Positions 1,624-27,740 of a stretch of DNA of 32,000 bases are shown piece by piece (the stretch's first letter is position 1; each line of letters opens with the position of its first letter). The DNA is from Pseudoalteromonas translucida KMM 520. Its GTDB lineage: Bacteria > Pseudomonadota > Gammaproteobacteria > Enterobacterales > Alteromonadaceae. A program made the position numbers and the translations under genes. The stretch spans positions 390,001 through 422,000 of the forward strand of contig NZ_CP011034.1 of NCBI RefSeq assembly GCF_001465295.1, given 5' to 3'. Below the pieces are notes generated by a model, which searched no databases, was not told where the DNA came from, and saw nothing but the letters and a program-made list of their open reading frames with translations.

Positions 1624-1832
1624 AAGGGCAGCTTTCATAAAGCTAAATTTTAGGTGTCAGATTTTAGGTATCAGGTTTTAGGTAGAAATTAGCCAAGCTC
1701 GGTGTGTGGGTTAAACCGCAGACGGGCTTAATGTCGCGCAGGTTAAGCTTTAAACCCTGCGCGAGGTAAACTTCCACCTACAAGTTAGGCGCTTGGTTTA
1801 TATCATTTACCTAAAACCTTGCGCCTAAAACT
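1624..1832 (+). repeat. structured intergenic repeat, copy 1
   Basis: It begins AAGGGCAG immediately after the gpsA stop (1621-1623). The core is ...AGGTTTTAGGTAGAAATTAGCCAAGCTCGGTGT...CGCGCAGG-N13-CCTGCGCGAGGTAAACTTCC..CTACAAG. The 3' end TACCTAAAACCTTGCGCCTAAAAC is the inverse of the 5' AGGTTTTAGGTA motif. Confidence 0.85.
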
Positions 1833-1841
1833 CTTTACTTC

Positions 1842-2306
1842 TTACTTTGCGCCCGGAAACCCAAGCTGGCGCCACGATTCATACACAAACACCGAAACCG
1901 CGTTAGATAAGTTCATACTGCGGCTATTGGCTTGCATTGGAATGCGCACCCGTTGCTCGTTTGGAAGCGATTGAATTAGCTCATCCGGAAGGCCGCGCGT
2001 TTCAGGGCCAAATACTAAACAGTCGCCAGCCTCGTATTGTGCCTGATGATGAAATTGGCTGCCTTTAGTGGTGCAAGCGTATATTTTTTTAGGCTTGCAT
2101 GCTTCTAGGTAAGCTTCAAACGAAGCATGGCGTTGTACATGGCTAAATTCATGATAATCAAGGCCGGCACGTTTTATTCGTTTGTCATCCCATGCAAAGC
2201 CAAGTGGCTCAATTAAATGTAGCGAATAGCCCGTATTTGCACATAAGCGAATAATATTACCGGTATTCGGTGGGATTTCAGGTTGGTATAAAACAATATC
2301 CAGCAT
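1842..2306 (-). CDS. trmL: tRNA (cytidine/uridine-2'-O)-methyltransferase TrmL (SPOUT family)
   Basis: 154 aa. [26 protein letters not shown]... and the C-terminal [10 protein letters not shown] knot region are typical of YibK/TrmL. Confidence 0.9.
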
Positions 2307-2416
2307 AACGAGCCTTATAAAATAGTCAGTAATTTAACGATTTGCAGTATACACAGAAAGCGTGTAAAAAACTGATATACTCACTTTATTCAATACACTT
2401 ATTAACGGATAAATAC

Positions 2417-3334
2417 GTGCATAATCGCAGTTACGAATTTTGGGTAAAAACCTCTAGTTTAGTCACTATGGTCATGGTGAGCTTAATGATTGCAGCTAAA
2501 ACCTGGGCATGGCTTGCCTCGGGTTCAGCGTCAATGCTGGGCTCATTAACCGATTCACTCATGGATATTACCGCCACAGCTATGAGTTTTTTAGTATTAG
2601 GTTATGCGCTGCGCCCCGCCGATGACGACCACCGTTTTGGTCACGGCAAAGCCGAAGCGCTCGCTGGGCTAGGGCAGGCCGCATTTATTGCAGGTTCTGG
2701 CTGTTTATTAGCGTTTCATAGTATAGAGCGCTTGTTTAATCCTTTAGAGCTCACTCATTCATTGTTAGGTGTATGGGTAAGTATTTTTGCCATTGCCTGT
2801 ACATTAGTGATTGTATTTGTACAAAATAAAGTAGTTAAACATACCGAATCTATTGCAATAAAGGCCGACTCAGTACATTACAAAGGCGATTTGATTTTAA
2901 ATGCTGCGGTGCTACTGGCTATTTTACTCTCGTATTATGGTGTGTTGTACGCCGACCCTATTTTTGCAGTTGGCGTTGCCGGTTATCTACTTTATAACAG
3001 CTGGGATATAGCCCGAGATAGCGCAGATCACTTAATGGACAAAGAACTGCCAGATGAAGAAAAACAACGCATTTTAGATGTATCGAAAAGCCATACTGAC
3101 GTACGCGGTGTACACGGCGTTCGTACCCGACAAGGTGGAAAAGTTAAGTTTATTCAACTGCATTTAGAGCTAGATGATCACCTAAGCTTAATTCGCGCGC
3201 ACAACGTAGCCGATGAAGTAGAGGCAATGATCACTAAAGAATTTGAGTCAGAAGTTGATATTCTAATTCATCTAGATCCTTTGTCTTCTGTGGAACTGAG
3301 TGACACTGAGGGGGCAGCGGTAACTGAACCGTAA
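2417..3334 (+). CDS. fieF: cation diffusion facilitator family metal efflux transporter (FieF-like)
   Basis: LTDSLMDI...RPADDDHRFGHGKAEALAGL matches the FieF/YiiP signature, and a C-terminal cytoplasmic domain is present. The ORF is open from TTG 2342, but GTG 2417 gives an N-terminus the same length as E. coli FieF. The start is uncertain. Confidence 0.8.
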   Translation: MHNRSYEFWVKTSSLVTMVMVSLMIAAKTWAWLASGSASMLGSLTDSLMDITATAMSFLVLGYALRPADDDHRFGHGKAEALAGLGQAAFIAGSGCLLAFHSIERLFNPLELTHSLLGVWVSIFAIACTLVIVFVQNKVVKHTESIAIKADSVHYKGDLILNAAVLLAILLSYYGVLYADPIFAVGVAGYLLYNSWDIARDSADHLMDKELPDEEKQRILDVSKSHTDVRGVHGVRTRQGGKVKFIQLHLELDDHLSLIRAHNVADEVEAMITKEFESEVDILIHLDPLSSVELSDTEGAAVTEP

Positions 3335-3340
3335 GTAAAA

Positions 3341-3539
3341 CTGGAATTTCAGGTTAAAACCAGCAAACACTGGATTTAACCTGATACTTTTGCCCTAGAT
3401 GTGAAGTTTACCTCGCGCAGGGTTTTAAAAACGTAACCAGCGCGGCATAAAGCCCCGCCTATGGTTAACCCAAACACCGAGCTTAGTTTTTCTCTACCTA
3501 AAACCTACAACCTAACACCTCAAACCTGCTCTTCCACAC
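3341..3539 (-). repeat. structured intergenic repeat, copy 2 (the only minus-orientation copy)
   Basis: The reverse complement reads GGAAGAGCAGGTTTGAGGTGTTAGGTTGTAGGTTTTAGGTAGAG...TAAGCTCGGTGTTTGGG...TAGGCGGGGCTTTATGCCGCGC...CCTGCGCGAGGTAAACTTC. It starts 1 nt after the stop of the minus-strand pldB gene (3540-3542). Confidence 0.85.
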
Positions 3540-4472
3540 CTATTCGCAAAACTGGTACAAACTTGTTAGCAGTGGCTGGCGTATTTCATCACGTTCAAAT
3601 AATAGTTCGTGTTTAGCGCCGGCAAAGCTTTTTATTACGGCTTGGTTATGTCGGTTTGCCAGTTTATCTTGCGCGGCGTTATCTACTACTTCGTCGCGCT
3701 CTGCGCTGGCTATAAACAGTGGAATATTAATACTTAACTTATCAACCGATGCAATAAAGGTAAATGCGGCTTGTAGCCAGCCATAGGTTACGCCACCAAG
3801 CTGCAACAGTGGATCTTGATAGGTTTGCCTAAAAAATTTATAACGCACTTGGCTGCTAGTTAATGTATTTAAGGCAAACTCATCTGGGCTGTAATCGTTT
3901 TGCCCAAGGGCATAACTTTGTGAAAAACCGAAAAGCACAGCTGCGTTGGCAATCAATTTTGCCAACGGTTTTGGGGTGTTTTTAGTGTGAATGTCAAACA
4001 TGGGTGCCGATAAAAATAACCCACTAAAACTATTTTCAAAGTGGGCTAAATAGTCAAAAGCAATTGCACCGCCCATTGAGTGGCCAAGCAGTATTTTTTT
4101 GCCTTGCCAGTGATTATCAACAATTTGTTGATTAAATAAATGCAGATCGTGGCGATAATCAGTAAAGCATTTTACATAGCCTTTATGCGTATTAGCTAAG
4201 TGTCGATAAGAGCGACCTTGCCCTTGATGATCAACAATAAACACGGCAAAATTATTAGTGTACAGCTCCCACAATAGCTCTTTGTATTTATCAAGCCCTT
4301 CTATACGCCCTGAGCTAATTACAATAGCGGTATGCGCCTGTTCAGGTTTTGCATAGGCATAAAATAACTGCCCAGCAGGGGTATTTAAATAGGCTTTAAC
4401 TAGGGTGTTGTTATAAAAATCATTAATACTGGGTTGATTATTAACAAGCTCGTTTTCACTACTGTAAAACAT
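3540..4472 (-). CDS. pldB: lysophospholipase L2-like alpha/beta hydrolase
   Basis: 310 aa. SGRIEGLDKY...VDHQGQGRS...GHSMGGAIA...SAPMF...AERDEVVDN...KHELLFE is collinear with E. coli PldB as I recall it. GHSMG is the nucleophile elbow. Confidence 0.75.
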   Translation of the reverse strand: MFYSSENELVNNQPSINDFYNNTLVKAYLNTPAGQLFYAYAKPEQAHTAIVISSGRIEGLDKYKELLWELYTNNFAVFIVDHQGQGRSYRHLANTHKGYVKCFTDYRHDLHLFNQQIVDNHWQGKKILLGHSMGGAIAFDYLAHFENSFSGLFLSAPMFDIHTKNTPKPLAKLIANAAVLFGFSQSYALGQNDYSPDEFALNTLTSSQVRYKFFRQTYQDPLLQLGGVTYGWLQAAFTFIASVDKLSINIPLFIASAERDEVVDNAAQDKLANRHNQAVIKSFAGAKHELLFERDEIRQPLLTSLYQFCE

Positions 4473-4475
4473 TCA

Positions 4476-5891
4476 CTACTCTTTTATTATTGGTAAAGTA
4501 ACCATGGCGCACAGGCCACCTTGTGGTTTATTTGATAAAACCAAGCTGCCGCCATGAGCAATAATAGCATTTTTGGCAATTGCTAAACCTAAACCCGTGC
4601 CACCACTCACTCGGTCACGCGCATCTGACTGCCTAAAAAACGGCTCACATAACTTACTTAGCTGGTTATTTGGTACACCTGGGCCATCATCACATATTTC
4701 AATATAAATGGCATCACCGTGCTTTAGGGTAAGGCTAATAGTGTGCTGTGCATACTTAATGGCGTTGCGCAGTAAGTTTTCCAGTGCGCTGGCAATTAGC
4801 GCTTCATCGCAATTTAGTGTTACCGCCGCCGAGCCACTTACTTGTAGTTGCTTGTTATGCTGTTTTGCTTCAAAAGTGGCATCGTTAAGTACATGATCAA
4901 CAATATCTTGCAGCGACTGCTTGTGTAGCGATAACGCTTGGCTATTTGCCTCTAAACGCGACACTTGTAATACATCGGCAATCATTTTATCGAGTTGATT
5001 GGCTTCTTTTTCTATACGCAGTAAGTACGATTGGCTGGCTTCGCTTGCTTGCATTTGCGCAAGGCCAGTCGCCATTTTTAAGCGAGTAAGTGGCGAGCGT
5101 AGTTCGTGCGATATATCGGCCAGTAAGCGTTTTTGCGCGCTAATTAATTGCGCTAATTGGTCAGCCATACGGTTAAAGTCACGACCTAATATACCTAGCT
5201 CATCTTTACGATTAGCGGATATGGCAGCCCGGGCTGTTAAATCGCCGGCAGAGAGTTTAATCGCGGCTTTTTTTAAGCTGTTAATAGGCGCAATTAAATT
5301 ACGACTGAATAAAAAACTCAAAATAAGTGAGGCAATAATCGCAATCGAAATTTTTATCCATTTAGGCATTAACATTAAGCGCACGAATAGCGGCGGCTGG
5401 TGGTTTATGTCTATTTCGTATAAATAAAAGTGGCCCTCAGGTACATTTACACTGATAGGGCCAAAGGCCTGAAAATGTTCGGTAATTATTACCTGCGGCA
5501 GCATACTTTTACTAAAATTAAGCAAGCTTAAATCAATATTGCTCGGCACTTCTTTACTGGTTATAAAGTCATCGCTTTGCGCGGCACTTAAATACAATAA
5601 CTTACGTTTTGATAGTCTAGGGTGAGTAACAATATCGCTCAAGGTGCGCTGATGCTTAGTAACTGCGCGCTCAATGCTTTTAGCGGTATGAGCGAGGTTT
5701 TTTTTCATCGGCCCTTTTAATGGCTCATTACTGAGTACATTAATTAGCGTAATATGGCTTAAAAAAACAAGCGCAGCTATGGTGCCTATAATGGTAAGCC
5801 AGAACCAAATAAACACTTTAAAAAACAAGTAGTGATGTGGTTGCTTTAGCCACGCAAAGTAGGGCGCTTTATTCGCCTTGAATAAAGACAT
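4476..5891 (-). CDS. cpxA: envelope-stress sensor histidine kinase CpxA
   Basis: 471 aa with two TM segments, a HAMP domain, the H-box RLLADISHELRSPLTRL, the N-box ALENLLRNAIKYA and the G-box SGGTGLGLAIA. It closely parallels E. coli CpxA and overlaps the cpxR 3' end by 23 nt. Confidence 0.85.
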   Translation of the reverse strand: MSLFKANKAPYFAWLKQPHHYLFFKVFIWFWLTIIGTIAALVFLSHITLINVLSNEPLKGPMKKNLAHTAKSIERAVTKHQRTLSDIVTHPRLSKRKLLYLSAAQSDDFITSKEVPSNIDLSLLNFSKSMLPQVIITEHFQAFGPISVNVPEGHFYLYEIDINHQPPLFVRLMLMPKWIKISIAIIASLILSFLFSRNLIAPINSLKKAAIKLSAGDLTARAAISANRKDELGILGRDFNRMADQLAQLISAQKRLLADISHELRSPLTRLKMATGLAQMQASEASQSYLLRIEKEANQLDKMIADVLQVSRLEANSQALSLHKQSLQDIVDHVLNDATFEAKQHNKQLQVSGSAAVTLNCDEALIASALENLLRNAIKYAQHTISLTLKHGDAIYIEICDDGPGVPNNQLSKLCEPFFRQSDARDRVSGGTGLGLAIAKNAIIAHGGSLVLSNKPQGGLCAMVTLPIIKE

Positions 5892-6558: not shown

Positions 6559-6622
6559 TTTCAAACCCTTGGGTTGTGCCGTATGTGCTGATTTTACCTG
6601 CTTAATAGTACAAAAGTGAATC

Positions 6623-6638
6623 TTTACATAACCTTTAC
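6623..6638 (-). promoter_or_regulatory. candidate CpxR box (GTAAA direct repeat) in the cpxR/cpxP divergent region
   Basis: The minus strand reads GTAAAGGTTATGTAAA (TTTAC at 6623-6627 and 6634-6638). The published CpxR consensus is GTAAA-N5-GTAAA, and here the spacer is 6 nt. Confidence 0.35.
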
Positions 6639-7208: not shown

Positions 7209-7242
7209 CTTTTAGTTGGATAAATTTTTGGCTATATAAAAT

Positions 7243-7280
7243 AAAACACCGAGTTCCATTTGAGCTCGGTGTTTTGCTTT
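7243..7280 (+). terminator. Rho-independent terminator after cpxP
   Basis: The arms AAAACACCGAG (7243-7253) and CTCGGTGTTTT (7265-7275) form an 11-bp stem followed by a T-rich tail. The flanking A-run could allow bidirectional function. Confidence 0.7.
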
Positions 7281-7300: not shown

Positions 7301-7440
7301 AAGGTGTCAGGTTTTAGATAGAGGTTAAGCCAAGCACGGTGTTTAAATTACCCGCAGGCCAAGCTTTATGCCGCGCGGGTTAAAATTTAAAAACGATTGC
7401 GCGAGGTAAACTCTCGCCTACAAATTCCAGACTAAACCTA
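7301..7440 (+). repeat. structured intergenic repeat, copy 3
   Basis: AAGGTGTCAGGTTTTAGATAGAGGTTAAGCCAAGCACGGTGTTTAAATTACCCGCAGGCCAAGCTTTATGCCGCGCGGG...GCGCGAGGTAAACTCTCGCCTACAAA. It lies between the cpxP terminator and the yacG stop. Confidence 0.85.
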
Positions 7441-7444
7441 TTTA

Positions 7445-7675: not shown

Positions 7676-7800
7676 AGTAATCTCTCAATCTTGTTTTAAA
7701 TGGTGCTGTCTAATAGCCAAACTCTAAGTCAGTTTAAATGCTTTTAGTATTGTATTGTATTGGCTTTTATAGAGTCGTATCATTTTTCTGATACCTGATA

Positions 7801-13990: not shown

Positions 13991-14054
13991 GTTTCCTCTC
14001 CTAAAGGATAATGTTGTGGTAAATAAACACTATTTAAGTAGCATTAGTGCTTAG

Positions 14055-14132
14055 CTTAATTTGTTTATTTAACCTGTTTACTTAATTTGTTTATTTAAAC
14101 AGTTTACTTAAACTATTTATTTAAAAAATAAA
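14055..14132. repeat. 26-bp AT-rich tandem repeat upstream of pilA (2 good copies and 1 degenerate)
   Basis: CTTAATTTGTTTATTTAACCTGTTTA (14055-14080) and CTTAATTTGTTTATTTAAACAGTTTA (14081-14106) are 23/26 identical. A degenerate third unit lies at 14107-14132. Confidence 0.8.
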
Positions 14133-14552
14133 CTTTACTGTACAGCGTGTTTTGGTTTGTATAAAAAAAAGTACGCTGTGAATTTAGTTATTAAAGTTAC
14201 AAACGTTTAGCACTTTAATGCGTTATTTAATTACTTTTATATTTAGGTATAGCCGCAATCAATTTTTAATTACTTATATTGTTAGCTAATACGCGCTTAG
14301 CTTTTTATGCCTGTTCACTGAACGCATTAGTATTAAAGCAGCTAATTAGTGCTTTTATATTAATGTTACATTCATTTATAGTACAACAGCGTGAGTTTAC
14401 CACTGTTTTTTACTTTTTAGTACACGGCTTATATTTAAAAAAGTATTTTATTTAACAAAATGTTAAAAAGCAGTCCTTTCGGATTATTAAATGCTTTATA
14501 GCAGCTATTGTCAATGAATTAGCACGATTTTAATTTAGGCTTAGCACATATA

Positions 14553-15434
<882 letters not shown>

Positions 15435-15470
15435 TTACTATGTTTGAAATGTAATAACCAGCTTTGTGGT

Positions 15471-15610
15471 AAAGGCAGGTTTTAGGGAAAGAGCAGGTTT
15501 TAGGTAGAAATCAGCCAAGCTCGGTGCTTAGGTTATGTATAGGCGGGGCTTTATGCCGCGCAGGTTAAAATTAAAAAGCTGCGCGAGGTAAACTCCCGGC
15601 TACAAACTCG
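15471..15610 (+). repeat. structured intergenic repeat, copy 4
   Basis: AAAGGCAGGTTTTAGGGAAAGAGCAGGTTTTAGGTAGAAATCAGCCAAGCTCGGTGCTT...TAGGCGGGGCTTTATGCCGCGCAGG-N-CTGCGCGAGGTAAACTCCCGGCTACAAA. It has two 5' modules and lies in the divergent nadC/ampD region. Confidence 0.85.
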
Positions 15611-15697
15611 GTGGTTGGTAAGCTTTTATTGCTTCGTCTATCATTTTTAAATTAAATCCTTTAGCATCGATGTTATGTCGATCTTTTGATTTAAATT

Positions 15698-16252
15698 ATG
15701 AACATAGATTTAAATGGGGTGGTAAATAGTGCTGTGCAGCGTGGTTGTGCGCATTTTGATGAGCGCCCGAGTGATACTGATGTTTCTTTATTGGTGATTC
15801 ATAATATATCGTTGCCGGCGGGGCAGTTTGGTACGCCCTATGTTGATGATTTATTTATGGGTACGCTTAATTGTGAAGCGCATAGTAGCTTTAGCGATTT
15901 ACAGGGTGTGCGGGTGTCGGCGCATTGCTTTATTAAACGCAGCGGAGAGCTAGTGCAGTACGTGCCATTTAATAAACGAGCATGGCATGCTGGGGCGTCT
16001 GAGTTTAAAGGGCAAACTAACTGCAATAACTTTAGCATTGGCATTGAGCTTGAGGGAACCGACACCACAGCTTATACTTTAGCGCAATACACTAGTTTAA
16101 AAACACTAAGTAAAGCCATAATGCAACGCTACCCAAATATAACAATAGAGCGAATTGTAGGGCATTGCGATATAGCACCAGGGCGAAAAACGGACCCCGG
16201 TAGTAGCTTTAACTGGCATTTATTTTTAACTATGCTTAAACAATCAGGCTAA
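15698..16252 (+). CDS. ampD: 1,6-anhydro-N-acetylmuramyl-L-alanine amidase AmpD
   Basis: 184 aa, Amidase_2 family (LLVIHNISLP..., HCFIKR.G...QYV....RAWHAG.S, GHCDIAPGRKTDPG). nadC-ampD-ampE synteny supports the call. Confidence 0.9.
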   Translation: MNIDLNGVVNSAVQRGCAHFDERPSDTDVSLLVIHNISLPAGQFGTPYVDDLFMGTLNCEAHSSFSDLQGVRVSAHCFIKRSGELVQYVPFNKRAWHAGASEFKGQTNCNNFSIGIELEGTDTTAYTLAQYTSLKTLSKAIMQRYPNITIERIVGHCDIAPGRKTDPGSSFNWHLFLTMLKQSG

Positions 16253-16265
16253 GTGAGTAACAACA

Positions 16266-17117
16266 ATGATTTTGGTTTCGATAATAATTGCATTAATACT
16301 TGAGCGCTTAGGTGCTCGTTCAGCCCATTGGCAAATTAGCTACTACGCAGATGGTTATGTAAATCGCTCGGCAAACCTACTTACTAATAAAGGCGTATTT
16401 GGCTCGGGTGTTGGTTTTTTAGTGTGGTTACTTTTACCTGTACTGGCTATTGGTTGTTTATATTTGCTATCTGACTTTGTGCTGTGGCAACTTATTTTTA
16501 ATGTAACAATATTACTCGTGTGTTTTGGTTGTGCTAAACAGCGTGCTTTATATAAGTCGTACTTAAATGCTTTAACCCGAGATGATAAAACCGCAGCCAC
16601 TTTATATGCACTGCAAATAGGCCAAAATCGCACAGAAGAAGAACAAGACGGCGAAACAGTGGGGCAAACCCTGGCGTGGGTTAACTTTAGGTTTTACTGC
16701 GCGGTGATTTTTTGGTTTGTAATATTAGGCGCAGCCGGTGCGGTTTTATATGCACTCGTACGCACATTCGCCGACTTGGTAACGCAAGATGACGATGAAA
16801 TAATAGCAAAGCACACTAAAATGCTACACAGGTTATTATTTTGGCTTGATTGGTTACCTGCACGTATTACCAGTTTTGGTTATTTAGTAATAGGTAACTT
16901 TAATAAAGGCACTAGTTGCTGGTTACGCTACGCGCTTGATTTTACAAGCCCTAACCGCAAAGTAGTTACTTACACCGCATTAGCCGCAGAGCAGGTAGAA
17001 AAACGTTACTACGACTGCGCGTACGAAGCTACCTGTATGATTAAACTGGTAAAACGTAATGTATTGTTTTATTTAGTACTGATTGCGTTATTAACCCTGT
17101 TTGGTGGGTTGGATTAA
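16266..17117 (+). CDS. ampE: beta-lactamase induction signal transducer AmpE
   Basis: 283-aa membrane protein. ERLGARSAHWQ, WVNFRFY and LDWLPARIT parallel E. coli AmpE as I recall it. It follows ampD. Confidence 0.8.
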   Translation: MILVSIIIALILERLGARSAHWQISYYADGYVNRSANLLTNKGVFGSGVGFLVWLLLPVLAIGCLYLLSDFVLWQLIFNVTILLVCFGCAKQRALYKSYLNALTRDDKTAATLYALQIGQNRTEEEQDGETVGQTLAWVNFRFYCAVIFWFVILGAAGAVLYALVRTFADLVTQDDDEIIAKHTKMLHRLLFWLDWLPARITSFGYLVIGNFNKGTSCWLRYALDFTSPNRKVVTYTALAAEQVEKRYYDCAYEATCMIKLVKRNVLFYLVLIALLTLFGGLD

Positions 17118-17290
17118 AAAGCAGGCTTTAGATATCAGGCTTAAGGTAGAGATAAAACTAAGCTTGGTATCTAGGCTAATCGTAGACGGAGCTTTATGCC
17201 GCGCTGTTAATTAAAAAACATTGCGCAAGGTAAACCTTACGCAGCGTGTATTTGTTTTACTTATTTTTTAACTCCTAATACCTAAATCCC
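17118..17290 (+). repeat. structured intergenic repeat, copy 5 (most diverged)
   Basis: It starts right after the ampE TAA (17115-17117): AAAGCAGGCTTTAGATATCAGGCTTAAGGTAGAGATAAAACTAAGCTTGGTAT...TAGACGGAGCTTTATGCCGCGCTG...TTGCGCAAGGTAAACC. The tail is ...AATACCTAAATCCC. Confidence 0.75.
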
Positions 17291-17305
17291 CCATTTCTTA
17301 CCTCC

Positions 17306-17319
17306 TGGTCTGACCAATT
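17306..17319. promoter_or_regulatory. candidate PdhR operator (distal, half-degenerate)
   Basis: TGGTCTGACCAATT compared with the published PdhR palindrome ATTGGT-N3-ACCAAT. Confidence 0.4.
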
Positions 17320-17460
17320 TATTTTCGTCTCATTTACCTTTCTTTATTTATACTATTTTGTGTATTCTTTAAACTTTGTGCTGAATGCGTTACGCTGGCT
17401 AAGTGACCTTAAAGCCACTGTAAATTGACAGCAATTAGGCTTTTTGTTACCGTATGTCAA

Positions 17461-17479
17461 AATTTGGTATGACCAATTT
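17461..17479. promoter_or_regulatory. candidate PdhR operator (proximal)
   Basis: AATTTGGTATGACCAATTT has a perfect TTGGT-N3-ACCAA palindrome about 80 bp upstream of the pdhR start. This matches the autoregulated pdhR-aceEF-lpd promoter architecture of E. coli. Confidence 0.6.
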
Positions 17480-17555
17480 ACCTTTTGGCTAAATTGTTCA
17501 GTTCAAAGCCTGGTTTTAAGGGCTTTTGGTATTTATACAACGCGGACGTTGACTG

Positions 17556-18305
17556 ATGTCTTTAAAGATTAAAGCTGCAAAATTATCGGATGTGATTTTA
17601 CAACAACTTGAGAACATGATTCTTGAGGGATCGTTGGCACCAGGCGAAAAACTGCCACCGGAGCGTGAGTTAGCTAAGCAATTTGAAGTGTCGCGGCCAT
17701 CACTGCGCGAAGCGATTCAAAAGCTTGAAGCTAAAGGTTTAGTAACTAGGCGCCAAGGCGGCGGTACGTATGTAAAAAATCAGCTCGAAGAAGGGCTTAC
17801 TGATCCGCTGTTTGATTTGATCAGTAAACATCCTGAATCGCAGTTTGATTTACTTGAATTTCGTCATGCATTAGAAGGGATTGCCGCGTATTACGCTGCA
17901 CTGCGTGGCACCAATAACGATTTTATTAAAGTAAAACAAAGCTTTGATCAAATTGCTTTGGTACAAGACGACTTACAACAAAAAGCGAAAGCAATAAATG
18001 CTTTTCATTTTTGTATTGCAGAGGCGTCACATAACATTGTTTTACTACATTTAGTGAGAGGCATGCAGGCATTGCTTGAGCAAAATGTATTACAAAATTT
18101 AACCGTGTTATTAACAAAATCAGATATCAGTAACCAATTAGGCCACCACCGTGGTTTGCTAATGGATGCTGTTATTGAAGGTAAGCCCGAAGAAGCACGC
18201 TTAGCTAGTAATGCGCATTTAGCCTATATAGAAGAAGCATTACTTGAAGCGGGTAAAGAACATTCGCGAATTGAACGCAGTTTAAGACGCACCAAACAAA
18301 ATTAA
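17556..18305 (+). CDS. pdhR: GntR/FadR-family pyruvate dehydrogenase complex repressor PdhR
   Basis: It has an N-terminal wHTH (LPPERELAKQFEVSRPSLREAIQKLEAKGLV.RRQGGGT.V) and an FCD domain. It is directly upstream of aceE. Confidence 0.9.
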   Translation: MSLKIKAAKLSDVILQQLENMILEGSLAPGEKLPPERELAKQFEVSRPSLREAIQKLEAKGLVTRRQGGGTYVKNQLEEGLTDPLFDLISKHPESQFDLLEFRHALEGIAAYYAALRGTNNDFIKVKQSFDQIALVQDDLQQKAKAINAFHFCIAEASHNIVLLHLVRGMQALLEQNVLQNLTVLLTKSDISNQLGHHRGLLMDAVIEGKPEEARLASNAHLAYIEEALLEAGKEHSRIERSLRRTKQN

Positions 18306-21065: not shown

Positions 21066-21950
21066 ATGAGTATTGAAATTAAAGTACCCGATATCGGTGG
21101 TGATGAAGTAGAAGTAACCGAAATATTAGTAGCCGTTGGCGACGTTGTTGAAGTTGACCAAGCATTACTAACCGTTGAGGGCGACAAAGCGTCAATGGAA
21201 GTACCGGCCGACACTGCTGGCACAGTAAAAGAGATTAAAGTAAGCATTGGCGACAACGTAGCTACTGGCTCTTTAGTGTTTATCTTTGAGGGCGAGAGTG
21301 CAGGCGAAAGCGCAAGTACAGCTAAAAGCGACAGTGCAGCAGAGCAAAAAGCGCCTGCAACTGACGCTAAGCCAGCACCAGCGGCTTCTAGCTCTGCAGT
21401 ACAAGACGTAACTTTGCCAGATATTGGCGATGACGAAGTTGAAGTAACTGAAATATTAGTAGCCGTTGGCGACAGCGTTACTGAAGATCAGTCTATTTTA
21501 AGCGTTGAAGGCGACAAAGCATCAATGGAAGTACCTGCGCCATTTGCTGGCACAGTGAAAGAAATTAAAGTAGCGACTGGCGATACAGTAAAAACTGGTT
21601 CATTGGTATTTGTATTTGAAGTAGCAGGTAGCGAGTCTGCAGCACCAGCAGCTGAATCAACACCAGCCGAAACTAAAGCAGCACCGGCAGCAGCCGAGCA
21701 AAGCTCAGCATCAAGCACAAAAGAAGTTAACGTGCCTGATATTGGTGGCGACGAAGTTGAAGTGACCGAAATTTTAGTAGCCGTTGGCGACAGCGTTACT
21801 GAAGATCAATCGCTACTAAACGTTGAAGGCGACAAAGCGGCAATGGAGCTTCCGGCACCGTTTGCAGGCACAGTTAAAGAAATTAAAGTAGCTACGGGCG
21901 ACAAAGTATCGACCGGCTCGTTAATTTTTGTTTTTGAAGTTGCTGGTGGC
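21066..21950 (+). repeat. three tandem lipoyl-domain coding repeats inside aceF
   Basis: The units lie at about 21066-21290, 21399-21627 and 21720-21950. GAAATATTAGTAGCCGTTGGCGAC is shared by units 1 and 2, and GTAGCCGTTGGCGACAGCGTTACTGAAGATCA by units 2 and 3. Confidence 0.9.
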
Positions 21951-23021
21951 GCACCCGCTGCAGCCGCTAAACCAGAAGCCGAAAAATCTGCACCTGCTGC
22001 TAAAAGCGAAAAGCCAGCGCCAAAAGCCGAAACAGCGACGCAATCTGCTCCAGCAGCTAGCAACGAAAGCTTTGCCAATAACAGCGCGTATGCACATGCA
22101 TCGCCTGTGGTACGCCGTTTAGCACGTGAGTTTGGTATAAACCTAGCTAACGTAAAAGGCTCTGGCCGTAAAAACCGCGTAGTAAAAGACGACGTGCAAA
22201 ACTATGTTAAAAACCTAGTTAAGCAAGTTGAATCTGGTCAATTGTCGGCAGGTAAAGGCAACGCAGGCGGCAGTGAGCTTGGGCTTATTCCATGGCCTAA
22301 AGTTGATTTTGCTAAGTTTGGCGAAATTGAAGAGAAAAAACTATCGCGTATTCAAAAGCTATCGGGTAAAAACTTACACCGTAACTGGGTGCAAATCCCA
22401 CATGTTACTCAGTTCGACGAAGCCGATATAACAAGCCTTGAAGAATTCCGTAAAGAGCAAAATGCCCTTAACGAGAAGAAAAAGCTAGGTGTTAAAATTA
22501 CGCCATTAGTATTTGTAATGAAAGCCGCAGCAAAAGCGTTGGCCGAATTTCCAACTATTAACTCGTCACTGTCTAACGACGGTGAAAGCTTAATTCTTAA
22601 AAAGTACATTAATATTGGTGTAGCGGTTGATACGCCAAATGGTTTAGTAGTACCTGTGTTTAAAGATGTTGATAAAAAAGGCATTATTGAACTATCGCGC
22701 GAGCTAATGGAAGTATCTGTTAAAGCACGCGACGGTAAGCTTACCTCGGCAGATATGCAAGGTGGCTGTTTTACTATTTCAAGCTTAGGCGGTATTGGCG
22801 GTACGGCATTTACGCCGATTGTTAACGCGCCAGAAGTGGCTATTTTAGGTGTATCTAAATCTGAAATGAAGCCAAAATGGAATGGTAAAGAGTTTGAACC
22901 AAAACTTATGGTGCCATTGTCAATGTCGTACGACCATAGAGTGATTGACGGTGCGCTAGCAGCACGCTTTACTGTTACGCTGGCAAGCTACATGAGCGAT
23001 ATTCGTCAATTAGTGATGTAA
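21066..23021 (+). CDS. aceF: dihydrolipoyllysine-residue acetyltransferase E2 with three lipoyl domains
   Basis: There are three lipoyl domains ([11 protein letters not shown] twice and [11 protein letters not shown] once), Ala/Pro-rich linkers, the E3-binding domain [16 protein letters not shown] and the catalytic DHRVIDG. Confidence 0.97.
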
Positions 23022-23042
23022 TCGCTAAAAATGTATGAAATC

Positions 23043-23076
23043 AAATCCCAGCCAGTTGTTTTTTGCTGGGATTTTT
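23043..23076 (+). terminator. hairpin plus T-run between aceF and lpdA (attenuating terminator candidate)
   Basis: AAATCCCAGC (23043-23052) pairs with GCTGGGATTT (23065-23074), followed by TTTTT. Confidence 0.55.
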
Positions 23077-23178
23077 ACCATTTGCAATGATACAATCTTT
23101 GCACAGAATTTCTGCCTCGCAGAAGCATGGCAGTTAAACCTTGGGGCTGTGTCCCGTTCAAATAATTAAGGTAATAGC

Positions 23179-24606: not shown

Positions 24607-24626
24607 TTTCTTTTAGTTAATTGTTT

Positions 24627-24656
24627 AAAAACCCAAGCCCAGCTTGGGTTTTTTTA
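24627..24656 (+). terminator. Rho-independent terminator after lpdA
   Basis: In AAAAACCCAAGC-CCA-GCTTGGGTTTTTTT the stem is 24631-24638 paired with 24642-24649, followed by a T-run. Confidence 0.8.
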
Positions 24657-24663
24657 TGGGCGA

Positions 24664-24862
24664 AAAGCAGGTATTAGGTTAAGAGCAGGTATTAGGTTAA
24701 GAGCAGGTTTTAGGCAGAGATCAAACCAAGCTCAGTGTCTGGAGGTATGCGTAGGCGGGGCTTTATGCCGCGCTTATTAATATTAAAAAACTGCGCGAGG
24801 TAAACTTTCGGCTACAGGGTTGTATTACCTTATTGATACCTAAAACCTGAACGCTAAAATAC
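24664..24862 (+). repeat. structured intergenic repeat, copy 6 (three 5' modules)
   Basis: GCAGGTATTAGGTTAAGA occurs twice (24667-24684 and 24685-24702), followed by GCAGGTTTTAGGCAGAGA (24703-20). The core is ATCAAACCAAGCTCAGTGT...TAGGCGGGGCTTTATGCCGCGC...CTGCGCGAGGTAAACTTTCGGCTACAG. The 3' end is GATACCTAAAACCTGAACGCTAAAA. Confidence 0.88.
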
Positions 24863-24943
24863 TCTTTTCACTGCGCCCTTACATATCTATTTTTATCAAA
24901 TATAGCTACAATGCGCGCCTAATTTATTTAAGGTAAACCCCCA

Positions 24944-25618
24944 GTGAAAAATGCCGTTTTAGCATTACGTGCCCAACAAATAAGCGAATCGCGCCGTGAG
25001 TTCAATGCTCGGGGTGCTAAAATGACACGTTGCCAGCAATGCTTACTTGCAGAGCTTTACTGTATTTGCGAAGGGGTTATACAGGCCGATTGCGACGCTG
25101 CTGTTTGTTTACTTATGTATCATAATGAAAGCTTTAAACCTTCAAATACTGGGCGTTTAATCGCCGAAATAATACCTGAAAACTATGCATTTAGATGGGA
25201 CAGAACCGATCCCGATGCCAAACTATTAGCATTAATAAACGATCCACAATATCAGCCTATGGTGGTATTTCCTGCTGAAGATGTAGAGCCGGGCAGAGCC
25301 GTAACTGAAGTAAATATAACAGCCGGTAAAAAACCGCTATTTATATTTTTAGACGGCACCTGGCGCGAAGCTAAAAAAATGATCCGCAAAAGTCCGTATT
25401 TAGATAACCTTCCGGTATTATCGATCACTGCCGACAAACTCTCAGACTACCGCCTACGCGTTGCTCCCCATGCGCACCAACTCGGCACTGCAGAAGTGGC
25501 CATTATGGTGTTAGCGTTAGCGGGAGAGAAGGATGCAGCCTCTAAATTAGAACAGCACTTTATAAAATTCCGCGACGCGTACTTATTAGGTAAACGTAAT
25601 AAAGGTAGGCCAGAGTAA
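24944..25618 (+). CDS. tapT: DTW-domain tRNA-uridine aminocarboxypropyltransferase (YfiP/TapT-like)
   Basis: It is collinear with E. coli YfiP as I recall it (NAVL.LRA...RC.QCLL....C.C, PSNTGRLIA, YQPMVVFPA, PLFI.LDGTW.EA.KM.RKSPYLDNLPV, YRLR, TAEVAI). The start is GTG 24944, with AAGG 9 nt upstream. Confidence 0.85.
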   Translation: MKNAVLALRAQQISESRREFNARGAKMTRCQQCLLAELYCICEGVIQADCDAAVCLLMYHNESFKPSNTGRLIAEIIPENYAFRWDRTDPDAKLLALINDPQYQPMVVFPAEDVEPGRAVTEVNITAGKKPLFIFLDGTWREAKKMIRKSPYLDNLPVLSITADKLSDYRLRVAPHAHQLGTAEVAIMVLALAGEKDAASKLEQHFIKFRDAYLLGKRNKGRPE

Positions 25619-25808
25619 AAAGGGCAGGTTTTAGATATTAGGTTTCAGGCAGAGGTAAGCCAAGCACGGTGTTTAAGCTGCCCGTAGGCGGGGCTTTATA
25701 CCGCGCTTGTTAAAATAAAAAAACTGCACAAGGTAAACTCCTATCTATAAATCAGGATCGAGCTATATCACTTAGCTAGAACTTAAAACTAGAACCTCAC
25801 ACCTGACG
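25619..25808 (+). repeat. structured intergenic repeat, copy 7
   Basis: It starts right after the tapT TAA (25616-25618): AAAGGGCAGGTTTTAGATATTAGGTTTCAGGCAGAGGTAAGCCAAGCACGGTGTTTAAGCTGCCCGTAGGCGGGGCTTTATACCGCGC...GCACAAGGTAAACTCC. The 3' end is CTTAAAACTAGAACCTCACACCTGAC. Confidence 0.85.
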
Positions 25809-26027
25809 CTTTTAATATTTTTATAATTTATTTCCTGCTTCCCTCACATTACTCAAAAAACAAACTACTCTTTTAACAATAGTTATTTGTAACTAAAAAT
25901 ACACTCAATATAATCAACTTTTTTACTATTTAAAAAAATAAAGTAAATAAAAAAGTATTGTAATTGCGCCTTTTACATTTATAAATTATCCTTCAGCGAT
26001 ATATCACCCTAAGGGAATATCATTCAA

Positions 26028-27569
26028 ATGAATCAGCAAAAACAAGCTATAGTCGACCAGGAAGTTACTTTTGGTATTGATGAAGAACTGCTTTCTACTA
26101 CAGATTTGCAAGGAGTCATAACTTACGCAAATGATAACTTTTGTAAAGTTGCTGGATATACATTAGACGAGCTAGTAGGTAATAACCATAGTATGGTGCG
26201 CCACCCAGATATGCCCAAAGCTGCATTTGCCGATTTATGGTCTAATTTAAAGAATGATATTGCTTGGCGAGGTGCAATTAAAAATAGATGTAAAAATGGT
26301 CAATACTACTGGGTTGACGCATTTGTAACGCCCATTTATGAAAGCGGTAAAAAAATTGGCTATCAATCTGTTAGACGCCGACTATTACCAGAGTACTTAA
26401 ACAGTGCAGAAAAACTGTATCAGCGGATTAATAGTGGTAAGTCTATAAATACATTTACTCATAAGCTATCAGTACTCAAACTCCCTATATATTTATGCTT
26501 TAGTGCACTTTTTGCTTGGTTAGTTAGTTATTCACTGTGGTTTATTTTGCTGTTTATTCCTCTGCCTTTTGTTATTTATTATGATCAGCTCGTTTTATCG
26601 CAGCGATACCTTAAAAAAAGAAAAGCCGAGTCAGACAGTATTTCTCGCCATGTGTTTTCGGGCAGTAATATATTTAGTTTTGCAGATTTTCAAATTAAAT
26701 TACTCGAAGGCAAAGTCACTACAATAGTAGGGCGGATCATCGATGGAACATTGAGTTTAGAAAAAGGTGCCAATTCGCTCAAAGCCGTTGCTCAAAAATC
26801 TAAATTGGGAGTTGAAAAAGAAGCTGCAGAGCTACATCAGGTTTCGTCAGCGGTTGAGCAAATGGTTAACTCAATTGATGAAGTTGCCAAAAGTACTGTT
26901 ATAACTACCCAAAAAGTAAATCAAGCGCATTCAAATTGTGAGGCAGCTACACAAGCTATGTCGCAAACTATGGATAAAGTTTCTTTACTCGCAAATGAGG
27001 TAGATAACTCAGCTAATTCAGCTACAGAATTAGCCAAAGAGGCAGGTAAAATTGGCGATATCATGCAAGAAATTCAAGGTATTGCAGATCAAACTAATTT
27101 ACTTGCGCTAAATGCAGCCATCGAGGCAGCGCGTGCTGGAGAGCATGGAAGAGGTTTTTCTGTAGTTGCAGATGAAGTTCGCGCACTATCAAGTAGAACT
27201 CACTCTGCCACTGAGCAAATACAAACATCTATAGCAGAAATGCAGTCAACGTTATTAAGCTGGTCTAAAACGATGGAAGTTGGAAAAAACGCTGCCGAAG
27301 ACTGTGTTAAAGAAACACGCCAAACACAAGAAGTAGTTTCTCAGGTTCATCTTTCTATTAGCGATATTTCAGATATCACGAGCCAAATATCTACAGCTGC
27401 CGAAGAACAAAGTATGGTATCGCAAGAGATTAGCCGTAACATTTACAACATTAGTGAAACCTCAAGCGAAAACCTAACTCAAGCACAATTAGTAGAAGTT
27501 GAATCAGACTCTATTGATAAACGCTCAAAAATGCTTGCATCATTAGGGTTATCTTTCAAAGTAGATTAA
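26028..27569 (+). CDS. PAS-domain methyl-accepting chemotaxis protein (Aer-like energy/aerotaxis receptor)
   Basis: It has the N-terminal Aer-type PAS ([43 protein letters not shown]), a central hydrophobic hairpin, and the MCP signalling hairpin [40 protein letters not shown]. Confidence 0.88.
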
Positions 27570-27700
27570 AGGGCGGGTAAGAGCAGGCATCAGGCAGAGA
27601 TTAAGCCAAGCTCGGTGTTTAAATTACCCGTAGGCGGGGCTTTATGCCGCACTTGCTAAAATTAAAAAGCATTGCGCGAGGTAAACTCCCAACTGCAAGC
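27570..27700 (+). repeat. structured intergenic repeat, copy 8
   Basis: It starts right after the MCP TAA (27567-27569): AGGGCGGGTAAGAGCAGGCATCAGGCAGAGATTAAGCCAAGCTCGGTGTTTAAATTACCCGTAGGCGGGGCTTTATGCCGCAC...TTGCGCGAGGTAAACTCCCAACTGCAAG. Confidence 0.85.
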
Positions 27701-27707
27701 TCAAGGT

Positions 27708-27740
27708 TAAAGATCAAACCAAGCTCGGTATTAAAGCCAA
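27708..27740 (+). repeat. partial extra repeat fragment (left-core module only)
   Basis: AAAGATCAAACCAAGCTCGGTATTAAAGCC matches the AGAGATCAAACCAAGCTCAGTGT segment of copy 6. Confidence 0.6.

Follow-up and report, generated by a model that had tools for sequence, protein, structure and literature searches.

The locus analysed here raises the question of which kind of element occupies its intergenic gaps. The window, that is the whole 32-kb stretch of DNA under study, contains eight full copies of a repeat, seven on the + strand and one on the - strand, together with one fragment. An earlier note had described these eight copies as a dispersed, non-coding, structured intergenic family of mobile-element type, with MITE-like ends in four of them. 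We have examined the anatomy of the repeats, their variation between strains, their dispersal and their possible enzymatic partner.

Detection and anatomy of the repeats

All eight copies share a conserved core of about 115 nt, the alignment of which has 45 invariant columns. The nhmmer profile of this core finds exactly eight places in the window (E = 7e-29 to 9e-35) plus the fragment, and independent repeat finding recovers the repeats as well (families D2-D4, with the minus copy appearing as inverted pairs I1-I7), so that each copy is confirmed at the place originally reported. The motif search of the window returned 10 matches to TGCGCGAGGTAAACT with up to 3 mismatches (1.1 expected), 9 to GCCAAGCTCGGTGTTT (0.4 expected) and 24 to CAGGTTTTAGGT with up to 2 mismatches (3.7 expected), in each case far more than by chance. 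Every copy sits in inter-ORF space. Of the 11 intergenic gaps that measure 120 nt or more, three (7677-7800, 13991-14552 and 23022-23178) are free of the repeat and the other eight are occupied. The earlier description of the family as dispersed, non-coding, structured and of mobile-element type is upheld.

Each copy is a polar mosaic, whose first part consists of AGGTNNN-type short repeats, variable in number and with a period of 7, 14 or 18, followed by a linker module of about 30 nt (AAGCCAAGCTCGGTGTTTAA) that leads to the REP. The REP half reads GTAG + GCGGGGC-TTTAT-GCCGCGC, with a 7-bp stem, a conserved central G.G mismatch and a TTTAT loop; it is joined by an A+T-rich linker of 18-21 nt to an inverted relative (iREP) reading GCGCGAG-GTAAA-CTCCCGC + CTAC, with the loop GTAAA. 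The two halves can each fold locally, or pair with one another into one long hairpin. The features are the following:

Copy 1, 1624..1832 (+): between gpsA (stop 1623) and convergent trmL; 14-nt/7-nt short repeats 1647-1684 (also found by TRF), linker module about 1685-1717, degenerate REP-a 1718-1739 (tag GCAG), A+T linker, iREP-b 1759-1781 (ends CTAC), inverted AGGTTTT-type repeats 1809-1832 in the 3' part; nhmmer match 1672-1788 (+), E=8.6e-32.
Copy 2, 3341..3539 (-): abuts the pldB stop (3542-3540), convergent with fieF; heptamer array 3496-3527, REP-a 3462-3440 (tag ATAG), iREP-b 3418-3396, and at the 3' end a separate perfect hairpin at about 3345-3385 (from sequence and fold); nhmmer match 3507-3400 (-), E=4.1e-31.
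Copy 3, 7301..7440 (+): 3' of the cpxP terminator hairpin (7248-7275), convergent with yacG; degenerate REP-a 7354-7376 (tag GCAG), intact iREP-b 7399-7421; nhmmer match 7308-7426 (+), E=5e-32.
Copy 4, 15471..15610 (+): in the divergent nadC/ampD gap; 18-nt repeat 15471-15504, REP-a 15539-15561 (tag ATAG), iREP-b 15581-15603; nhmmer match 15494-15610 (+), E=8.5e-35.
Copy 5, 17118..17290 (+): abuts the ampE stop (17117), upstream of pdhR; REP-a 17182-17204 (GTAG, weak stem), degenerate iREP-b 17223-17245, inverted short repeats at about 17270-17288 in the 3' part; nhmmer match 17136-17249 (+), E=6.9e-29.
Copy 6, 24664..24862 (+): 3' of the lpd terminator (24635-24651), upstream of yfiP/tapT; 18-nt repeat x2.7 at 24666-24714 (TRF), intact REP-a 24751-24773, iREP-b 24793-24815, inverse motif 24838-24849 in the 3' part; nhmmer match 24704-24820 (+), E=1.1e-33.
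Copy 7, 25619..25808 (+): abuts the yfiP stop (25618), upstream of an MCP gene; REP-a 25684-25706, degenerate iREP-b 25726-25748, inverted heptamers at about 25775-25806; nhmmer match 25639-25754 (+), E=3.6e-32.
Copy 8, 27570..27700 (+): abuts the MCP gene stop (27569); REP-a 27630-27652, iREP-b 27674-27696 (tag decayed to CTGC); nhmmer match 27584-27701 (+), E=1.8e-33.
Fragment, 27708..27751 (+): second linker module (AGATCAAACCAAGCTCGGTATTAAAG) without a REP pair, apparently what is left of one more tandem unit; nhmmer match 27708-27742 (profile positions 13-47), motif matches 27718-27733 and 27736-27751.

The stems of the REP and iREP halves differ by compensatory changes (GGC/GCC versus GAG/CTC), and stem variation between species is compensatory as well, further types (GGT/ACC, GAA/TTC, AAA/TTT) being found in related loci. 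Across 402 kb of these loci there are 199 GTAG-tagged hairpins with a 7-bp stem and a 5-nt loop, against 16.6 in shuffles and 10-21 with control tags, which is 12-fold above chance; among 82 unique REPINs pairing is observed at six of the seven stem positions, position 4 being almost always mismatched. The E. coli TnpA_REP needs a stem mismatch plus GTAG (PMC3333891). Of the 16 REP halves in the window's eight copies, just two retain the canonical GTAG tag and hairpin, and the REP-b of copy 3, whose ortholog in L040 has GTAGGCGGGGC intact, passes the test for GTAG plus a 7-bp stem, as only two window hairpins do; REP copies are better kept in sister strains. The GCTTTATGCCGCGC and TGCGCGAGGTAAAC halves are near-invariant, even with decayed pairing partners. 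Folds of single window copies are mostly no better than those of shuffles, which, like the small number of canonical halves, speaks against a REP assignment. Copy 4 is the sole one of the eight for which the MFE structure is the full long REPIN hairpin (z=-3.6), and copy 1 folds into one long hairpin over the whole element (z=-5.8), with a left/right inverted similarity scoring 31 (null maximum 21), whole-element palindromy being significant in this copy only among the eight tested. The antisense strand has a terminator-like arrangement: in six of the eight copies 5-7 consecutive T come after the REP-b hairpin, and a scan flags copy 5.

Variation between strains and dispersal

Across strains, orthologous gaps are empty, or hold one unit or 2-4 tandem units. 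Sites with one to four tandem units among strains of 95-98% identity are those of copies 2, 3, 4 and 7: the copy-2 site has 1, 2 or 3 units in sister strains, the copy-4 site has 4 in L031, and the copy-7 gap has 1, 3 or 4 REPIN units in P. nigrifaciens strains. At the copy-4 site of strain B62 there are 8 or more units, which belong to a different REP type. The L016 ortholog of copy 8 has one more REPIN unit, copy 7 is missing from the L013 and B62 relatives, and strain B62 lacks copies 5-7. In L036 the segment from 24668 to about 24824, corresponding to copy 6, is missing. The comparison of orthologous gaps proposed in the earlier note thus reveals both an empty allele and varying unit numbers.

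Outside the window, the 10 kb upstream contain one partial copy, and a 20-kb stretch 105 kb away contains one full copy, with one further weak match in KMM 661; these two sampled stretches are 2-5 times sparser in repeats than the window. The several hundred or more copies per genome extrapolated in the earlier note are a tentative figure. The distant full copy is found downstream of fbp on the 1.88-Mb contig that also carries the window's syntenic region; the complete P. nigrifaciens KMM 661 genome and several metagenomes have it too. Exact-pattern scans of public collections returned 12 and 22 loci only. At least eight further Pseudoalteromonas species harbour related copies, at loci that are not orthologous. 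Arrays of the type (AGGTNNN)n are seen genus-wide.

A RAYT gene in sister strains

There is no RAYT in the window, and its strain is without one at both known positions; the link between the repeats and a RAYT therefore rests on sister strains. At L016:491-943 a 150-aa protein with the HUH motif DHIH and with YIVANP is encoded, which scores 132 bits on the NCBIfam model NF047646 'REP-associated tyrosine transposase' (cut-off 80 bits) and remains below the cut-off of the IS200 model. It matches Pfam Y1_Tnp, the best solved structure is 4ER8 (E. coli TnpA_REP), and its relatives carry the source annotation 'REP-associated tyrosine transposase [Pseudoalteromonas]'. The RAYT homologues of L016, L030, L004, L018, L027 and L039-L042 have REPs on both sides within about 60 nt, and a REP-embedded RAYT is present also in a second Pseudoalteromonas lineage. 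In P. nigrifaciens (L039-L042) the gene lies inside the gap of window copy 5, window 17119-17303 corresponding to L040 9840-10529 (the window and L040 being 93-98% identical), and in L016 and L030 the copy-6 gap contains the gene plus extra REPINs, so that the Y1 partner of RAYT or IS200-IS605 type that had been suggested for the family is indeed found. The position of the RAYT gene differs by strain. We thus consider, with a probability of about 0.88, that the window repeats are REP/BIME-type elements (REPINs), i.e. non-autonomous palindromes belonging to a RAYT (TnpA_REP).

Alternative explanations

The repeats might instead be classical MITEs, deletion derivatives of a DDE-type IS with terminal inverted repeats AGGTTTTAGG / CCTAAAACCT and IS ends like AAAAGGGCAGGTTTTAGG, mobilised in trans. 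The end-to-end fold of copy 1 would suit this reading, as would the inverse of the 5' motif near the 3' end, which the earlier note gave for copies 1, 2, 6 and 7: it is exact in copy 6 (24838-24849), has one mismatch in copy 1 (1809-1820) and two in copy 7 (25794-25805), but is absent from copy 2, which has its separate perfect hairpin there. However, a convincing 3' partner is missing in five of the eight copies, and the supposed terminal repeats are variable-number AGGTNNN tandem repeats, whose unit and number vary by copy and strain. In addition, the empty copy-6 allele of L036 has no target-site duplication and retains the 3' 'TIR' (ACCTAAA), the neighbourhood transposases are only REP-flanked RAYT and REP-targeting IS110-type genes, and around none of the copies are there ends matching the IS4-family gene at 31260-31961. 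The MITE-like interpretation of the ends is thus not upheld, and such an origin is very improbable. Very improbable, too, is a purely local family, produced by segmental or slippage-type duplication around the RAYT locus: even though the seven species-group metagenome loci with the exact pattern (L017, L021, L030, L031, L032, L034, L036) all represent the window's region, and the upstream 10 kb have just their partial copy, the full-length copy at fbp and those in other species argue against it.

A host cis-acting RNA or DNA element spread by selection, such as a 3'-UTR stabiliser, a one-directional terminator/insulator or a protein-binding site, would make the RAYT association incidental. Seven of the eight copies start 0-60 nt past a co-oriented gene's stop codon or terminator, and at all five sites between tandem (same-direction) genes the element has the orientation of its neighbours; the antisense hairpin with its T-run and the near-invariant GCTTTATGCCGCGC and TGCGCGAGGTAAAC halves are likewise compatible with such a function. 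However, no Rfam family matches the repeats, whether gathering or E-value thresholds are applied; cpxP and lpd come with canonical terminators of their own ahead of copies 3 and 6; and presence/absence and the variation from 1 to 4 units between near-identical strains are at odds with a required function at each site. Since such roles are secondary uses of RAYT-linked elements in known REP systems, this explanation, improbable as a substitute, complements the RAYT reading rather than replacing it.

Comparison with known systems

As in the E. coli REP/BIME and RAYT system (TnpA_REP, 'REPtron'; Ton-Hoang et al. 2012, PMC3333891; Corneloup et al. 2021, PMC8266576), a 5' GTAG tag precedes an imperfect palindrome in whose stem a mismatch is conserved, two inverted sister REP types are combined with conserved linkers into a mosaic, tandem clusters vary in unit number by strain, a small HUH/Y1 gene (~150-165 aa) is flanked by REPs, and the elements are extragenic, mostly at gene 3' ends. 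In contrast, the Pseudoalteromonas sequence is unrelated to the y/z1/z2 consensus, the stem has 7 bp only with a fixed TTTAY loop, the polar 5' module (AGGTNNN repeats and ~30-nt linker) confers direction, the RAYT gene lies in different gaps by strain, and its motifs DHIH/WQ/YIVANP follow the pattern of subclass 2.5 (Quentin et al. 2018, PMC6006769), listed there for xanthomonads and pseudomonads, rather than that of the E. coli subclass. The statement that the repeats do not match REP/BIME therefore stands with respect to the E. coli consensus, but not at the level of the class, all defining REP features being present.

With the REPINs and RAYTs of Pseudomonas fluorescens (Bertels & Rainey 2011, PMC3116915) the repeats share an inverted REP doublet as the replicated unit, with one long hairpin possible (all eight window copies are doublets), a cognate RAYT with REPIN flanks and lineage-specific REP sequences, B62 having a different REP type at the same site. 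Unlike those REPINs, the window copies look decayed and form no 'master sequence' cloud, since they are mutually 62-85% identical and no two are alike; the literature searched describes no heptamer arrays for Pseudomonas REPINs. In the superfamily of GTAG-tagged palindromic repeats, e.g. Stenotrophomonas SMAG (Di Nocera et al. 2013, PMC3733652), the GTAG terminus likewise adjoins a stem-loop, distribution is patchy within genera, and singletons, head-head/tail-tail dimers and tandem clusters occur. The main text of that survey makes no mention of Pseudoalteromonas, whose stem is mismatched as in the E. coli group, unlike the perfect palindromes of Stenotrophomonas.

What the family has in common with IS200/IS605 insertion sequences and their palindrome-associated derivatives is a Y1 HUH enzyme of related kind, hairpins in subterminal position, single-strand chemistry and the lack of target duplication; here, however, the protein lies above the RAYT and below the IS200 cut-off, tnpB is missing and the repeats far outnumber the gene. 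Correia, RUP, ERIC and BOX elements resemble the family in size (130-210 bp), intergenic location, predicted hairpin and many copies, but the repeats have neither fixed terminal inverted repeats nor target-site duplication, the absence of sequence similarity to these families noted earlier holds, and no family of Rfam, the one repeat or RNA library searched, gives a match.

Implications

The GTAG tag, the mismatched imperfect palindrome, the REP/iREP pairs, the strain-variable tandem clusters and the flanked RAYT place the Pseudoalteromonas repeats in the known REP/BIME class; what is new is this genus's version, not the element type. By analogy with E. coli, Stenotrophomonas and Marinomonas, the RAYT would bind the GTAG-tagged, mismatched hairpin on single-stranded DNA and would cut and rejoin at nearby C^T sites, by which units would be spread and reshuffled without target duplications, and later recombination or slippage between units would alter the tandem number. 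In vivo RAYT-driven REP spread is undemonstrated in any organism (PMC8266576), and the model leaves the conserved 5' linker module, the AGGTNNN arrays and the polarity with respect to genes unaccounted for, as it does the strain-dependent position of the RAYT gene. The absence of a RAYT at both known positions and the unusual decay of the window copies fit the view that these are relics whose renewal has ceased. At the level of the host, the location of the copies in 3' untranslated regions makes a role in RNA 3'-end protection plausible.

The repeat family and its anatomy

The eight intergenic repeats of the window (copies 1 to 8, from 1624-1832 to 27570-27700) were all recovered by mechanical repeat finding, seven on the + strand and one, copy 2, on the - strand, which confirms that the family described in the earlier note is real. 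Their MAFFT alignment contains 45 invariant columns, and a profile built on the core of ~115 nt yields exactly eight matches in the window (nhmmer, E = 7e-29 to 9e-35), with an additional fragment match at 27708-27742; the three core motifs are found 6- to 24-fold above the expectation from dinucleotide shuffles. Two further claims were borne out: over the whole window each copy sits between ORFs, all being extragenic and non-coding, and most sizeable gaps hold a copy, namely eight out of 11 when intergenic gaps ≥120 nt are counted. Among the three large gaps devoid of a copy is that of 562 nt ahead of the type IV pilin genes, in which an A+T-rich tandem repeat of 13/26 nt lies at 14055-14125 (CTTAATTTGTTTATTTAAACAGTTTA x2.7).

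The Rfam comparison that had been proposed was carried out on the whole window and gave no covariance-model match at the gathering threshold (Rfam 15). Relaxed E-value thresholds were applied to three stretches, with no match at E<=1 over 15400-17600 and none on the element over 27500-28500. A plasmid collection queried with a copy and with the partner transposase described below returned a 37-nt match and distant transposases of the same kind only.

Read 5' to 3' along the element strand, each copy is composed of five parts:

Part 1: boundary near (T/G)AAAAGGGCAGG
Part 2: short tandem repeats based on AGGTNNN, variable in number, with a period of 7, 14 or 18
Part 3: linker of ~30 nt, AGATTAAGCCAAGCTCGGTGTTTAAGTTACCC
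Part 4: GTAG + GCGGGGC-TTTAT-GCCGCGC, an A+T-rich segment of 18-21 nt, and GCGCGAG-GTAAA-CTCCCGC + CTAC
Part 5: variable tail, with inverse AGGTNNN units in copies 1, 6 and 7

The TAA stop codon of the upstream gene is directly abutted in four cases (gpsA, ampE, yfiP and the MCP gene). As for YfiP/TapT, the window protein (last residues encoded at 25604-25618) and its relatives P0006, P0007, P0011 and P0013 end differently after a conserved NKGRP, namely in E*, EPDQS*, LSI*, CSR* and L*; the coding end and the stop codon thus seem to be supplied by the abutting intergenic element.

Assignment to the REP class

When read on its own strand, the second half of part 4 becomes GTAG + GCGGGAG-TTTAC-CTCGCGC, and thus has an architecture like that of the first half in the opposite orientation, with the distal stem pairs altered on both sides. 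Such sister hairpins are the signature of a REP followed by an inverted REP (iREP), the doublet termed BIME or REPIN. Indeed, all eight window copies are REP plus iREP with a linker of 18-21 nt. The view of the entire element of ~200 nt as one large palindrome, its left half mirrored by the right, was dismissed, being significant for copy 1 only.

The tag and hairpin statistics were analyzed over related loci. Of 82 unique REPINs, 59 have GTAG as the 5' tag of the REP and 58 have CTAC, its complement, as the 3' tag of the iREP; within the window, GTAG is kept in four of the eight first halves (REP-a; the others have ATAG or GCAG) and CTAC in four of the eight inverted halves (iREP-b). A scan of the related loci (402 kb) counted 199 hairpins made of GTAG, a 7-bp stem and a 5-nt loop; shuffled sequence contained 16.6, and replacing the tag by one of six control tetranucleotides gave 10-21. 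In the 82 doublets six of the seven stem positions are paired in 79-100% of the copies, and the central position 4 is mismatched in ~87-90%, being G.G in the REP and C.C in the iREP. Consensus folding (RNA-type) of the eight window copies revealed no covariation, the paired positions varying too little among these eight; it is across species that covariation is found, the compensatory stem types being GGC/GCC, GAG/CTC, GGT/ACC, GAA/TTC and AAA/TTT. Long-range pairing of REP with iREP engages 5-6 of the 7 positions per arm pair and pairs GTAG with CTAC in 86% of cells; it closes the central stem position, yet opens two or three others, and in copy 4 this long REPIN hairpin is the MFE fold.

Binding and cleavage by E. 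coli TnpA_REP need both a 5' GTAG and a stem mismatch (PMC3333891), and the Pseudoalteromonas repeats carry both features. The statement that the sequence does not match REP/BIME is true of the E. coli consensus only and has to be withdrawn at the level of the class, since the GTAG tag, the mismatched palindrome, the inverted REP pairs, tandem clusters of varying size and a REP-flanked transposase gene were all found. The window repeats are a REP/BIME/REPIN family of the Pseudoalteromonas nigrifaciens group with a cognate REP-associated tyrosine transposase (RAYT).

The partner transposase and its position

A tblastn search of the window found no Y1 transposase; the ORF between copies 6 and 7 encodes a DTW-domain tRNA-uridine aminocarboxypropyltransferase (YfiP/TapT), by which the window was placed in Pseudoalteromonas; an exact look-up of the window's AmpE gave no record. 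A YfiP/TapT relative, 99% identical, is encoded on metagenome contig L016, and there the partner that the earlier note had suggested looking for is present: a 150-aa Y1_Tnp gene (L016:491-943) lies between these REPs at the copy-6 site, the gap separating lpd from yfiP. The protein matches Pfam Y1_Tnp (PF01797) and scores 132.4 bits on the NCBIfam model NF047646 for REP-associated tyrosine transposases (cut-off 80), against 30.3 bits on the IS200 model NF033573, under the cut-off of 55. Among solved structures its best match is E. coli TnpA_REP (4ER8), in which the HxH and YIxxNP motifs align with its own, and its length and motifs (DHIH, WQ and YIVANP) fit the subclass 2.5 pattern tabulated in Quentin et al. 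2018. Close relatives are already called REP-associated tyrosine transposase in the NCBI/UniRef records of Pseudoalteromonas, among them a P. nigrifaciens protein with 93% identity. REPs lie within ~60 nt on both sides of every RAYT (L039-L042, L016, L030, L004, L018 and L027), including a second RAYT lineage with 66% identity (L004, L018 and L027) whose genes have arrays of this REP pair on either side. Binding and cleavage of the cognate single-stranded REP by the enzyme are known for the E. coli, S. maltophilia and Marinomonas systems only (PMC3333891, PMC8266576).

The window is syntenic with P. nigrifaciens assemblies (L039-L042) over 20 kb at 93-98% DNA identity. In these the RAYT is located in the ampE-pdhR gap (L040:10001-10453), where copy 5 (window 17119-17303) is replaced by 690 nt arranged as iREP, REP, RAYT, partial REP and iREP. 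In L016 (491-943) and in TARA scaffold 30725 (L030:6992-7441) it is located in the lpd-yfiP gap, orthologous to window 24664-24862, and the ampE-pdhR gap of the TARA scaffold (L031) is too short to hold a RAYT. Neither gap contains a RAYT in the window or in L036, a related locus with flanks 96-98% identical to it. The two alternative gaps are 7.5 kb apart within one species-level group; at the DNA level the flanks share 96-98% identity, whereas the two RAYT versions are 93% identical in protein. In this species the gene thus has two alternative positions; the usual description of RAYTs is that they behave like housekeeping genes (PMC8266576). The RAYT gene itself may be relocating between REPIN sites within the species.

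Genes for IS110-family (DEDD) transposases of 327 aa were observed beside or inside REP pairs at L039:10538-11521, L042:10538-11521 and L050:11298-12281, next to the RAYT in the first two and directly after the fbp copy in the third. IS110-type elements are known to insert into REPs (PMC12288879), and the placement seen here fits such targeting.

Variation between strains and decay of copies

Comparison of orthologous gaps between strains revealed the presence/absence polymorphism that the earlier note had proposed looking for, in the form of an empty site in L036, missing copies in strain B62 and variable unit numbers. The empty copy-6 allele of L036 reads GGGCGAAAA|GTCACCTTG..., and lacks the window sequence from 24668 to ~24824, from the short repeats through CTAC+AGGGTT; the 3' ACCTAAA is still there. 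No target-site duplication is evident at this site when the filled and empty alleles are compared. The interpretation of the element ends as MITE-like terminal inverted repeats does not hold, as the inverse motifs are variable short repeats found in three of the eight copies. In B62, whose YfiP is 88% identical, copies 5, 6 and 7 are absent and the copy-4 site bears at least 8 tandem units of another REP type, GTAGGTGAGGTTTTACACCTCGC. Even among strains that are 95-98% identical the unit number varies, as detailed below; arrays in other species reach 8 units, and the 14-nt subrepeats of copy 1 number 3 or 2 depending on the strain.

Number of REPIN units at orthologous sites among 95-98%-identical strains
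Copy-2 site: 1, 2 or 3
Copy-3 site: 1 to 3
Copy-4 site: 1 or 4
Copy-7 site: 1, 3 or 4

The copies of the window itself are considerably decayed. No two of them are close (62-85% identity), and of the 16 REP halves only the REP-a of copy 6 and the REP-b (inverted half) of copy 3 pass the test for GTAG plus hairpin. Folding is clearly better than that of shuffled sequences for copies 1, 3 and 4 only, and copy 4 is the only one that folds in this way as the full long hairpin. The fraction of REP-like halves with an intact hairpin is 2/22 in the window, 10/20 in the P. nigrifaciens locus L040 and 0.25-1.0 in other relatives; the REP-a of copy 3 differs from its intact ortholog at 4 of 11 positions, despite flanks that are ~96% identical. 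Judged from the 32 kb of the window, this decay would fit a lineage that lost its RAYT.

Polarity, heptamer arrays and alternative readings

Five independent sites lie between tandem genes, and at every one of them the element points in the direction of the genes; copies 1 and 2, which are 1.7 kb apart on opposite strands, each start at the stop codon of the gene that runs in their own direction. An intrinsic-terminator role in the sense orientation was discarded, as no T-run follows the hairpins and both cpxP and lpd have terminators of their own upstream of the element. On the antisense strand a T-run follows the REP-b hairpin in six of the eight copies, and the polarity may reflect selection against a terminator in sense orientation. 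The conserved 5' module may make the mobile unit a polar composite that stays co-oriented with the upstream gene. Other known classes of repeats were set aside for unsuitable context or motifs: integron attC sites would come in cassette arrays, which are lacking, the arrays are without the spacers of a CRISPR, and the motif repeated is AGGT instead of the GGA bound by CsrA in a CsrB-like sponge.

The short repeats were analyzed as arrays of period 7. Those in the window include:

1647-1684: period-7 array
3496-3527: period-7 array
24666-24714: period-7 array
28358-28392: period-7 array, a perfect (AGAACCT)x5 in the wza leader

Over 324 kb, 42 of 72 such arrays lie within 150 nt of a REPIN match, though only 9% of the bases do (~6-fold enrichment). 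An ACCT/AGGT core is present in 17 of 38 distinct unit types, the lists near and far from REPINs being counted separately, against 5% expected, and heptamers with this core are equally over-represented far from REPINs. The arrays around REPINs often have inverted orientation on the two sides, a placement of which we found no description in the literature searched. L003, L004, L018 and L033 hold many arrays, with up to 44 units at L004:6824-7134, and an unexplained excess of heptanucleotide repeats is known in many bacteria (PMC4679880). E. coli TnpA_REP cuts at a CC^T motif, which is present in the complement of (AGGTNNN)n; these arrays may be footprints of repeated cleavage and rejoining by the RAYT and not of ordinary slippage, and a tie between the ACCT core and C^T cleavage is put forward as an idea only. 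The broader proposal, that Pseudoalteromonas harbors an unusually live and atypical REPtron (REP plus RAYT) combining a relocating RAYT, a polar composite mobile unit and arrays that are cleavage footprints, we regard as rather unlikely.

Distribution beyond the window

Exact-pattern scans returned 12 loci from GTDB genomes and 22 from JGI metagenomes, with the motif pair in Pseudoalteromonas only, apart from one 259-bp contig; these scans are not a census, because P. nigrifaciens loci with known matches were not returned from the genome collection. The exception (L012, NZ_JBEOPF010000442.1) is labelled Psychrobacter sp., and the 43 nt before its REPIN match without a difference the sequence after the pldB stop codon in the Pseudoalteromonas contig L021; it is probably cross-contamination in its assembly batch. 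The 10 kb upstream of the window contain one partial copy. At a distance of 105 kb, on the same contig (1.88 Mb), a full copy follows fbp; it is also present in the complete genome of strain KMM 661, and the 20-kb stretch that includes it otherwise holds one weak match at most. The family is therefore dispersed, and the density of the window (8 per 32 kb, or one per 4 kb) is atypical of the two other stretches sampled, with ~1 per 10-20 kb. The figure of several hundred or more copies per genome in the earlier note is a guess.

Other features of the window and its relatives

A long leader (27790-28491) precedes the wza-wzb-wzc polysaccharide export cluster. It contains a JUMPstart/ops-like match at 28174-28210 (22 bits, below the gathering score of 35) and a similar second motif ~90 nt downstream. 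At 30055-31961, the wzc tyrosine-kinase ORF has 376 aa, against ~720 aa for full-length Wzc; the ORF after it (31260-31961) encodes an IS4-family transposase, and wzc thus looks interrupted by an insertion sequence. The three direct repeats of ~247 nt at 21073-21967 (68-79% identity) lie within an ORF of 651 aa (21066-23021), which corresponds to the triple Biotin_lipoyl/2-oxoacid dehydrogenase (AceF-type) gene of the syntenic P. nigrifaciens loci; they therefore represent the usual triplication of lipoyl domains and have nothing to do with the REP family. In the relatives L013 (900-1450) and L015 (11290-11750), where the MCP gene and the wza cluster are both missing, a conserved non-coding stretch of ~500 nt extends from yfiP to the gene of an ABC-transporter binding protein. 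It is dense in TCCT/ATCC and GGA-rich on the minus strand, resembling a CsrB-like sponge, and had no Rfam match at E<=0.01.

Significance

The repeat that fills most intergenic gaps of a P. nigrifaciens-type stretch now has a name and a partner enzyme. In the literature searched we found no paper linking RAYTs or REPs to Pseudoalteromonas; the enzyme is already named in genome annotations. For annotation, these gaps need no longer count as unexplained, and for assembly and strain typing, length polymorphism is to be expected in them. To specialists in REPs and RAYTs the most useful part is the population-level variation, which comprises an empty site, 1-4 units per gap, two RAYT positions, IS110-type insertions into the REPs and more decay in the strain devoid of a RAYT at both positions. 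The in vivo spread of REPs is not yet settled, and it could conveniently be studied in a species with so much standing variation.
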